From: a virus | Virus record (IMG/VR): IMGVR_UViG_3300032271_002180 | Length of the DNA stretch: 20,897 bases | Strand: one strand, 5' to 3' | Shown here: piece by piece, positions 13,363-13,503 of the stretch | Numbering within the stretch: position 1 is the stretch's first letter | How the letters are laid out: each line of letters starts with the position of its first letter | Made by a program: the position numbers and the translations under genes | Notes under the pieces: generated by a model | The model's input: the letters and a program-made list of their open reading frames with translations, nothing else | The model's database searches: none | Told to the model about the DNA's origin: nothing

Positions 13363-13503
13363 TGGTGGCTGGGGGACCAGGGCTCGAACCTGGATAAGCA
13401 GATTCAATTTTTGGTGATTCCGGATTTGCACCGTATTATACTATGCCCGTATTAATAGAGCAATCTCACCCAGTCTGCTGTCCTACCATTAGACGACCCC
13501 CAA
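13363..13503 (-). tRNA. tRNA (Pro-like, anticodon region CUGGGU) with a roughly 65-70 nt insertion in the anticodon loop. 3' terminus CCACCA.
   Basis: Acceptor TTGGGGG / CCCCCAG with U8. D-arm GTCT-AATGGTA-GGAC. Anticodon stem GCAGA ... TCTGC is split by the insert. T-arm CCAGG-TTCGAGC-CCTGG. The tandem CCACCA makes the exact 3' end ambiguous. Confidence 0.4.

Follow-up and report, generated by a model that had tools for sequence, protein, structure and literature searches.

The viral DNA stretch held as IMG/VR record IMGVR_UViG_3300032271_002180 (20,897 nucleotides (nt), called the window below and always meant at its full length) contains a transfer RNA (tRNA) gene whose anticodon loop is interrupted by an insert with the layout of a tRNA in miniature. 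The gene lies on the minus strand at 13366-13502 and, as judged from its sequence and neighbourhood, is tRNA-Gln(UUG); the insert of 64 nt, GGGUGAG...AUCACCA-AAAA, is placed by the same kind of evidence at 13408-13471, between U33 and U34. The best explanation, which is held tentatively, is that this structured mini-tRNA would be cut out of the precursor by tRNA end-processing enzymes and that the exons would then be ligated.

Read along the minus strand from 13502 to 13366, the gene begins with TGGGGGT-C-GTCT-AATGGTA-GGAC-A-GCAGA and ends, after the 71 nt that separate the anticodon-stem halves GCAGA and TCTGC, with TCTGC-TTAT-CCAGG-TTCGAGC-CCTGG-TCCCCCA-G-CCA. The 5′ exon (13472-13502, minus strand) covers tRNA positions 1-33, that is, the acceptor 5′ strand, the D arm, the stem half GCAGA and C32 U33, and the 3′ exon (13366-13407, minus strand) comprises U34 U35 G36 A37 A38, UCUGC, the variable loop, the T arm, the acceptor 3′ strand, G73 and CCA. 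The mature 5′ end lies at 13502 (or, if the acceptor is read in its other register, at 13503), and 13366 is the last base of the encoded CCA. A first-pass annotation of the window, made from the letters alone, had noted here a tRNA whose anticodon-stem halves are set apart by an insertion, and ARAGORN with intron detection indeed calls such a gene (c[13366,13502], with a 64-nt intron). Its picture of good acceptor, D and T arms around a split anticodon stem holds in that the split tRNA is real by this call and by its exon score, and holds only in part for the acceptor arm, whose 5′ strand is one base short. With the insert taken out, the exons reach an ARAGORN score of 115.7, in the upper half of the array, whose other tRNAs score 102.6-123.5; the flanking halves thus make up a sound tRNA and not obvious debris. 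The split gene is real and not an assembly artefact, because two further assemblies carry the insert: an independent Logan assembly (L011; such handles are used below for related loci that have to be told apart) has the gene letter for letter, and a 99.2%-identical strain contig from a JGI metagenome of another sample (L017) has the same insert with one substitution in it.

ARAGORN labels the gene tRNA-His(GUG), and this label was rejected, since three excision registers (Gln UUG, His GUG and Pro GGG) score equally and homology, synteny and identity elements all lead to Gln(UUG). More specifically, the 21-nt segment GTCTAATGGTAGGACAGCAGA, which spans the D arm and anticodon stem of the 5′ exon, is identical to that of four insert-free tRNA-Gln genes in IMG/VR, two of which have the loop CTTTGAA, and the six tRNAs most similar to the exons, among 105 collected, are all tRNA-Gln. 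In a related phage (L012-L014, with a neighbour protein 79% identical) the gene order is Ile(GAU)-Arg(CCU)-Gln(UUG)-Gln(CUG)-ORF (open reading frame), and the window has the same slots, filled by Ile(GAU), an odd Arg(CCU)-like gene, the split gene, Gln(CUG) and the ORF; the Gln(UUG) in the corresponding slot of L012-L014 is insert-free and has the loop CTTTGAA. The last tRNA of this series in the window, the partner isoacceptor tRNA-Gln(CUG) at 13284-13358 (minus strand; default ARAGORN, Rfam 44.2 bits), is insert-free, and the UUG/CUG pair is also present in L012. In ARAGORN's register the body of the split gene has U1-A72, G2-C71, G3-C70, G73, G10 and U35, which we take to be the Gln identity set of Escherichia coli, and it has neither the His determinants (C73/G-1) nor the Pro determinants (A73/G72). 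The insert boundaries follow because only the register CU|64 nt|UUGAA yields the ortholog loop CUUUGAA, identical to that of the insert-free Gln(UUG) genes in L003, L004 and L012. The insert site is therefore placed at 33|34, and that of a second interrupted gene in the window, tRNA-Pro, at 36|37; neither is the canonical intron site 37|38. The two Gln bodies of the window (13284-13502) are swapped with respect to L012 (1646-1801): the TGGGGG-type body is UUG and the TGCCCG-type body is CUG in the window, and the reverse is found in L012, with the order of the isoacceptors kept, so that either an anticodon switch or a gene shuffle may have taken place.

The insert itself fits a structured RNA with the ‘top half’ layout of a miniature tRNA. 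A seven-position acceptor-like stem starts at insert base 1 (5′ strand GGGUGAG, 13465-13471, minus strand), with positions 2-6 pairing to UCACC and the G of position 1 facing an A. It is followed by a variable core with a D-like hairpin and by a T arm of 5 base pairs (bp) with the T-loop-like sequence UGCAAAU (UACGG-UGCAAAU-CCGGA, 13419-13435, minus strand), which is supported by a T-arm scan, by the template fit given below and by covariation with inserts in tRNA-Asn and tRNA-Ser genes of related phages. The T arm abuts the acceptor-like 3′ strand AUCACCA, and the 4-nt tail AAAA reaches the last base of the insert, so that strand and tail together (13408-13418, minus strand) end at the 3′ junction. 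This layout was expressed as a template of fixed register, anchored at insert ends that had been set independently from insert-free orthologs; it was formalised after two of the three family sequences had been seen, and the Asn insert was tested afterwards. Shuffled sequences matched the template in 5 of 200,000 cases for Gln and in 0 of 200,000 for both Ser and Asn, the Asn test being out-of-sample. In the L017 variant of the Gln insert the minimum free energy (MFE) structure is the mini-cloverleaf, its single substitution adding a G.U pair to the D-like stem, and in the precursor a composite of the outer cloverleaf and the inner mini-tRNA lies 4.7 kcal/mol above the MFE.

Within the insert (13436-13464, minus strand) there is also the sequence TTGCTC-17 nt-TATAAT. 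It runs in the direction of the tRNAs, its -10 hexamer is perfect, and its -35 element matches at three of six positions. As an internal sigma-70 promoter this site was rejected: its -35 element is weak, the promoter scanner does not list it, and the promoter-like sites of the region are near the number expected by chance (13 vs 8.7 ± 3.1).

Further inserts were reached in relatives via two conserved neighbouring ORFs. The tRNA-Ser(GCU) gene of a related phage has a 49-nt insert at 35|36, identical in two samples, and the tRNA-Asn(GUU) gene of a related phage has a 69-nt insert, also at 35|36, in a body that matches the insert-free Asn gene of L012. The outer exons of both are intact (Asn, Rfam 48.9 bits; Ser, ARAGORN 120.2), as is expected if the inserts are tolerated, and the closest relatives of these phages have the same tRNAs insert-free. 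In the fixed register, the Ser, Gln and Asn inserts have bases 1-7 as the acceptor-like 5′ strand, then a core of 14, 29 or 34 nt, a T arm, a 7-nt 3′ strand and a 4-nt tail, and each spans ‘+1’ to ‘76’ of a miniature tRNA. The T arms are all of 5 bp, their loops (UUCAACU, UGCAAAU and UGCAAUA) conserve U54, C56, R57 and A58, and the purine-rich tails (AAAU, AAAA and AGAA) end at the last base of each insert. Position 1:72 is unpaired in all three (G.A, G.A and A.A), with A72 invariant. The Asn insert alone folds into a four-arm cloverleaf of -30.6 kcal/mol. Of the 12 pairs, 6 have both partners changed among the three inserts and are still paired. Paired cells amount to 80.6%, a level that none of 500 shuffles attains (54.7% in shuffles), and controls slid by one column give at most 52.8%. 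Because of this shared layout with compensatory changes, and because the closest relatives carry the same tRNAs without inserts, the three are read from comparative sequence evidence as a small family that has been gained and lost at several anticodon-loop positions of different tRNA genes.

No covariance model of the family was built, since MAFFT was unable to align the variable cores, and a relaxed motif scan for the family was non-specific (85 matches vs 58 in a reversed control). Low-scoring ARAGORN intron calls are also found in L010, L024, L026 and L028; an intron call in L012, labelled Tyr, was dismissed as spurious, the gene being a normal tRNA-Ser(GGA).

The second interrupted gene of the window, tRNA-Pro(UGG) at 3743-3902 (minus strand; Rfam 52.6 bits, also found by ARAGORN), has an 83-nt insert (3783-3865) between G36 and G37, and removal of this insert restores the loop UUUGGGA, which is the Pro(UGG) loop of L012. 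The Pro insert is strongly structured (z = -4.7) and shares with the Gln, Asn and Ser inserts the 3′ junction pattern YC-A-A-R-A-W|; a minihelix of 35 nt at its 3′ end was seen by eye and is a tentative assignment. From two such genes in one window, the first-pass annotation had judged a systematic feature more likely than an accident, and this view gains from the Asn and Ser genes of related phages, which join the Pro gene as insert-bearing tRNAs. Alignment of the two inserts of the window with each other, which it had also proposed, gives a similarity that is marginal at best (local p about 0.14, global p about 0.016), but the surrounding exons are not pseudogene-like by score, which makes a mixed outcome for the refuting condition that the annotation had set.

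Several known kinds of element were considered for the Gln insert and rejected. It is not a group I intron, being 64 nt long, ending in A and having no Rfam group I match at E≤10, and no other ribozyme or RNA family of Rfam matches it at that threshold. It is also not a repeat or an element resembling a miniature inverted-repeat transposable element, as the window, together with about 0.45 Mb of related loci, holds the Gln and the Pro insert only once each. Searches of IMG/VR, JGI metagenomes and GTDB genomes with junction, gapped-exon, insert and degenerate family patterns found the same insert nowhere else; the sole pattern match was a chance one in a deltaproteobacterial metagenome-assembled genome, with no tRNA nearby.

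From the anatomy of the insert, we infer that it would be removed by tRNA end-processing enzymes together with an RNA ligase. RNase P and the 3′-end processing enzymes recognise the stack of acceptor stem and T arm, as is known from minihelix substrates, and U|G is a favoured context for RNase P. The 5′ junction is U|G in both the Gln and the Asn gene, and because the insert mimics a tRNA from ‘+1’ to ‘76’, RNase P is proposed to cut at its first base (‘+1’). An endonuclease of the RNase Z or RNase E type would then cut after the 4-nt tail (‘76’), and precedents for this are the cut that RNase Z of Thermotoga makes after position 76 and the action of RNase E in an A/U-rich junction. Both cuts would leave a 3′-OH and a 5′-phosphate, and the outer cloverleaf would hold the exon halves together until an ATP-dependent RNA ligase of the T4 Rnl type, a kind that phages of this group encode, sealed them into the loop CUUUGAA, with the predicted spliced junction ...GGACAGCAGACU-UUGAAUCUGCUUAUCC... 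(CU-UUGAA). T4-type ATP-dependent RNA ligases do seal 3′-OH/5′-phosphate ends, and T4 Rnl1 naturally reseals a tRNA broken at 33|34. An RNA ligase (PF09414) is encoded in a more distant relative (L015), on a stretch without tRNAs that was reached via a 54%-identical homolog of ORF 12450-13145, and genes of the CCA-adding/poly(A) polymerase family are present in L018 and L020.

If true, this would be protein-dependent tRNA splicing in the bacterial world, assembled from enzymes that are already present. The wider claim, that there is a third kind of tRNA intron beside group I introns and introns with a bulge-helix-bulge (BHB) motif, consisting of mobile miniature tRNAs in the anticodon loops of phage tRNA genes that would be excised by RNase P plus an endonuclease, with the tRNA resealed by a phage RNA ligase, is doubtful. 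There is also a practical consequence: such genes are missed by default ARAGORN and by Rfam and are misnamed by the intron mode of ARAGORN (His for Gln), so that phage tRNA repertoires, and the codon-usage inferences drawn from them, are distorted.

A number of observations weigh against excision and ligation of a mini-tRNA insert, and they concern the insert, the enzymes and the outer tRNA alike. The fold energy of the Gln insert is weak (z = -1.2 to -1.4), the support for the family comes from three distinct sequences only, and the Pro insert shows no significant fit to the mini-tRNA template. As for the enzymes, we know of none that cuts exactly after a 4-nt non-CCA tail, and the 20.9 kb of the window hold no ORF for a ligase or an end-healing enzyme. 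RNase P alone cannot explain the Pro insert or the inserts published for the Lak megaphages (compared below), because their tRNA-like module begins some way downstream of the 5′ junction. The outer acceptor 5′ strand is one base short in comparison with related Gln genes. Where a canonical tRNA has an acceptor stem of 7 bp and two connector nt before the D stem, this gene is left with either 6 bp or a U7.U66 mismatch and only one connector base. In strain L017 the acceptor strands have homopolymer indels that do not compensate each other, with 7 G instead of 5 (+2) in the run at 13496 and 4 C instead of 5 (-1) in the run at 13371, which suggests relaxed constraint on this tRNA-Gln gene. Finally, the gene is missed by Rfam even at E≤10, as it is by ARAGORN in default mode.

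These last points are also the main arguments for the strongest rival, in which the insert stays in place: this copy of tRNA-Gln(UUG) would have been inactivated by a small DNA insertion, selfish or accidental, and would now be a decaying pseudogene in a rapidly rearranging array. The short acceptor strand, the indels in both acceptor strands of L017 (3 events in 141 nt, compared with 16 in about 2,150 nt of flank) and the Rfam miss all speak for this, the array does hold relics and odd genes (3696-3740, 13514-13591 and ~15048-15122), and we know of no machinery for short tRNA introns in bacteria. It is a serious rival, which we nevertheless consider less likely than excision. Against it, the exon score is still in the upper half of the array, the window holds no insert-free Gln(UUG) that could replace the split copy, and random junk would not be expected to have a conserved and covarying structure in Asn and Ser genes that are otherwise intact. 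In addition, homopolymer length differences may be assembly errors, and the enrichment of changes in L017 is not significant (Poisson P about 0.09).

The mini-tRNA could instead be the payload: a small tRNA-like RNA, mobile or functional, would depend on the host tRNA gene for its transcription and for its precise release by tRNA-processing enzymes, re-ligation of the exons being incidental or absent. That the insert boundaries coincide with ‘+1’ and ‘76’ of the module, that strains differ less in the insert than in the outer acceptor stem, that the element is found in more than one tRNA and at more than one position, and that at least the lineage with the interrupted Asn gene has a second, intact Asn(GUU) gene (L024) would all agree with such a role. 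It is, however, an improbable one: no function can be assigned to the module, the Gln and Ser versions have no anticodon-like arm, there is no CCA tail, about 0.45 Mb of related sequence holds no copy outside tRNA genes, and the elements are very rare in public collections.

The probability is smaller again for a self-cleaving or self-splicing RNA of an undescribed class, with the exons joined by RtcB or by the RNA itself. Conservation of the insert structure and the very strong structure of the Pro insert would suit a ribozyme, and RtcB is frequent in huge phages (Iyer et al. 2021, PMC7824862). Yet Rfam has no ribozyme or intron family with a match at E≤10, the 49-69 nt of the family are far below group I size, the conserved sequence consists of the T-loop and the purine tail only and offers no candidate catalytic core, and the splice position relative to the tRNA varies. 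An archaeal/eukaryal-type intron removed by a BHB-recognising splicing endonuclease is largely refuted, since, although size and anticodon-loop location resemble archaeal introns and the intron mode of ARAGORN finds the gene, no BHB or relaxed BHB motif exists at any site pair that restores a 7-nt loop (shuffles equal the best BHB-like scores in 45 and in 78 of 200 cases), the insert lies at 33|34 and not at 37|38, the context is a T4-like bacterial phage, and the window has no EndA-like ORF.

The end of the gene was a separate point of the first-pass annotation, which had read a terminal CCACCA as a genomically encoded counterpart of the tandem CCA that marks defective tRNAs for degradation. 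The letters are present and genomically encoded, but the proposed meaning is not supported by their position and distribution. The gene ends with G73-CCA at 13366, and the next CCA (13363-13365) opens a spacer of 7 nt, CCAAUAU (13359-13365, minus strand; CCAATAT in the DNA), before tRNA-Gln(CUG) at 13358. A CCA following the CCA end is found in 0 of 182 other CCA-encoding tRNAs of non-redundant related loci and in none of the other tRNAs of the window, and the trailers of other CCA-encoding tRNAs are A/T-rich. The other insert-bearing genes do not have it either: Pro ends in ACCA-TTT, Asn in GCCA-ATT, and Ser encodes no CCA (CTCTTCC, then TTGTGA). By these sequence comparisons CCACCA is unusual and stands alone, is not systematic among these tRNAs, and shows no sign of function. 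In standard bacterial tRNA maturation, the trailer with the second CCA would be removed by RNase P processing of the downstream tRNA and by exonucleolytic trimming.

The window as a whole is a dense minus-strand tRNA array with interspersed homing endonucleases and small ORFs. ARAGORN finds 16 tRNAs by default and 18 with introns allowed, and Rfam adds two more. An ORF of 834 amino acids (946-3450, minus strand) has the shoulder and repeat domains of major vault protein (MVP; E = 1e-20 and 1e-8), and its phage relatives in GenBank are found only in ‘uncultured phage’ genomes of 462 kb and 735 kb. It is 39% identical to the copies in LR756500 and LR756501, which have no tRNAs near their MVP-like gene; relatives that are 57-59% identical occur on IMG/VR contigs of up to 406 kb with similar tRNA arrays, and the adjacency of this ORF and a tRNA array is conserved in several huge phages. 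The exonuclease subunit of a DNA polymerase in the window has 39% identity to that of PA5oct-like jumbo phages, and contigs found via another window ORF encode T4 gp23-like and gp15-like proteins. Because of these relatives, the source is, by its encoded proteins, a huge, T4-like phage; GenBank holds no close relative of it. ORFs for homing-endonuclease-like or other nucleases (HNH or PD-(D/E)XK-like) lie among the tRNAs at 7923-8657 and 9061-9789 (minus strand) and at 15424-16104 and 18229-18975 (plus strand).

Other genes of the array are odd in their own ways. At 13514-13591 (minus strand), in the slot of the normal tRNA-Arg(CCU) of the related phage, there is a tRNA-like gene with a good acceptor (GCTTTGG/CCAGAGC-G-CCA), a good T arm and the loop UUCCUAA, but it lacks a proper D arm and carries a long additional region. 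It is not called by ARAGORN, and the one match in Rfam, to tRNA-Sec (18.8 bits, E = 0.43), is far under the gathering score. Directly downstream of the Pro gene, at 3696-3740 (minus strand), lies a relic that consists of a hairpin, the T arm CAAG-TTCGAAT-CTTG and CCACCGAG-A-CCA and that resembles the 3′ half of the tRNA-Pro of the related phage (TACCGAG-A-CCA), a likeness that suggests gene replacement in the array. Between tRNA-Gln(CUG) and ORF 12450-13145, at ~13190-13276 (minus strand), a type II tRNA-Ser(GCU)-like gene is found by ARAGORN at a lowered threshold only (score 93.3). An uncalled cloverleaf at ~15048-15122 (minus strand), GGGATAGC...GCATCCC-A-CCA, has the T arm GGCGG-TTCGATC-CCGCT and an anticodon arm GCACT-GATTGC-AGTGT, which gives a loop of 6 or 8 nt and not of 7. 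According to ARAGORN, the genes at 7638-7707, 14965-15039, 15128-15218 and 15225-15298 (minus strand) comprise three tRNA-Trp(CCA), of which one is 91 nt long, and one tRNA with a 2-base ‘anticodon’ (tc); the Trp trio and the 2-base anticodon are further signs of non-standard tRNAs in the array.

Inside the array, ORF 13987-14583 (plus strand) belongs to a conserved family with 19 homologs. Its profile matches Tpt1/KptA (E = 5e-4) and DarT (E = 0.07) in the PDB, in both cases only over the LYHGT segment that binds nicotinamide adenine dinucleotide (NAD), and all top Foldseek matches of its AlphaFold model (predicted local distance difference test, pLDDT, 83) are Tpt1/KptA, weakly so (E 0.04-0.1, template-modelling score (TM) about 0.3). 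The RNA-binding lobe of Tpt1 is missing from the protein. An assignment as Tpt1, the tRNA-splicing 2′-phosphotransferase, is therefore uncertain, as only the motif of the NAD lobe matches; the product is best described as a protein of the ADP-ribosyltransferase fold, and a link to tRNA ligation chemistry is possible and unsupported. A gene for ADP-ribosylglycohydrolase (9853-10692, minus strand; E = 8e-63) lies 3.3 kb from this ORF, and the two are adjacent in the relative L019.

With respect to known systems, the two cuts proposed for the Gln insert are most easily compared with tRNA-like modules that are released by RNase P and RNase Z, such as mascRNA from MALAT1 and minihelix substrates. 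There too, a stack of acceptor stem and T arm in a longer transcript sets two precise cleavage sites, but the module is what is released and its flanks are not rejoined, whereas here the flanks are the halves of another tRNA. The proposed sealing step resembles the repair by T4 Pnkp and Rnl1 of tRNA-Lys cut by the anticodon nuclease PrrC. A phage ligase there reseals a tRNA 5′ of the wobble base (33|34), at the same phosphodiester as the site of the Gln insert; unlike here, the damage is inflicted by the host, there is no intervening sequence, and the ends are a 2′,3′-cyclic phosphate and a 5′-OH that need healing. Group I introns, found in cyanobacterial tRNA-Leu(UAA) and in tRNA-Asn/Asp of Patescibacteria (PMC13011429), likewise interrupt the anticodon loop, at non-canonical positions and sporadically, but they are at least about 200 nt long, have a P1-P9 core, end in G and self-splice, whereas the Gln insert is 64 nt long, ends in A and has no group I match. 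Archaeal and eukaryal BHB introns are short, processed by proteins and sometimes at non-canonical positions, in which they are alike; they differ by the motif, which the window insert does not have, and by its context in a bacterial phage.

The closest comparison is with the tRNAs of Lak megaphages, for which ‘enigmatic introns’ have been described, one of them read as a tRNA by Rfam, with similar introns predicted in another huge phage (Devoto et al. 2019, Nat Microbiol, PMC6784885); this is the one earlier account of short introns in phage tRNAs. In the literature searched, no proposed mechanism for Lak-type introns and no later work on one was found. Both sets are short anticodon-loop inserts in tRNAs of huge phages (79-114 nt in Lak, 49-83 nt here), are present in some relatives and absent in others (here, L012-L014 are insert-free), match no Rfam intron family, and contain a nested tRNA-like module of acceptor stem and T arm with a 3′ tail that ends at the 3′ junction; in the four published Lak introns (Table S6) this module has 12 of 12 acceptor and T-arm pairs and ends 3-4 nt before the 3′ junction. 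They are unlike in that alignments of the window inserts to the four Lak introns show no significant sequence similarity, and in that the Lak introns have a 5′ hairpin and an A/T-rich linker, so that their module starts about 28-32 nt in, whereas the module of the Gln, Asn and Ser inserts fills the whole insert. The Lak modules have perfect 7-bp stems and UUCGAAU loops, compared with the constant 1:72 mismatch and the Gln T-loop UGCAAAU here, and the Lak introns lie at 36|37 (in our reading of Table S6, with the 1-nt correction that its authors made for tRNA-Thr), compared with 33|34 for the Gln insert. The Gln, Asn and Ser inserts are related in principle to the Lak introns and differ in sequence, position, the missing 5′ extension and pair 1:72. 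The phenomenon thus extends to a different, T4-like group of huge phages, and the Gln, Asn and Ser inserts give it an anatomy, in which the ends of the mini-tRNA are the junctions. This turns an annotation oddity into a testable hypothesis, namely RNase P cleavage and 3′-end processing followed by sealing by a ligase.

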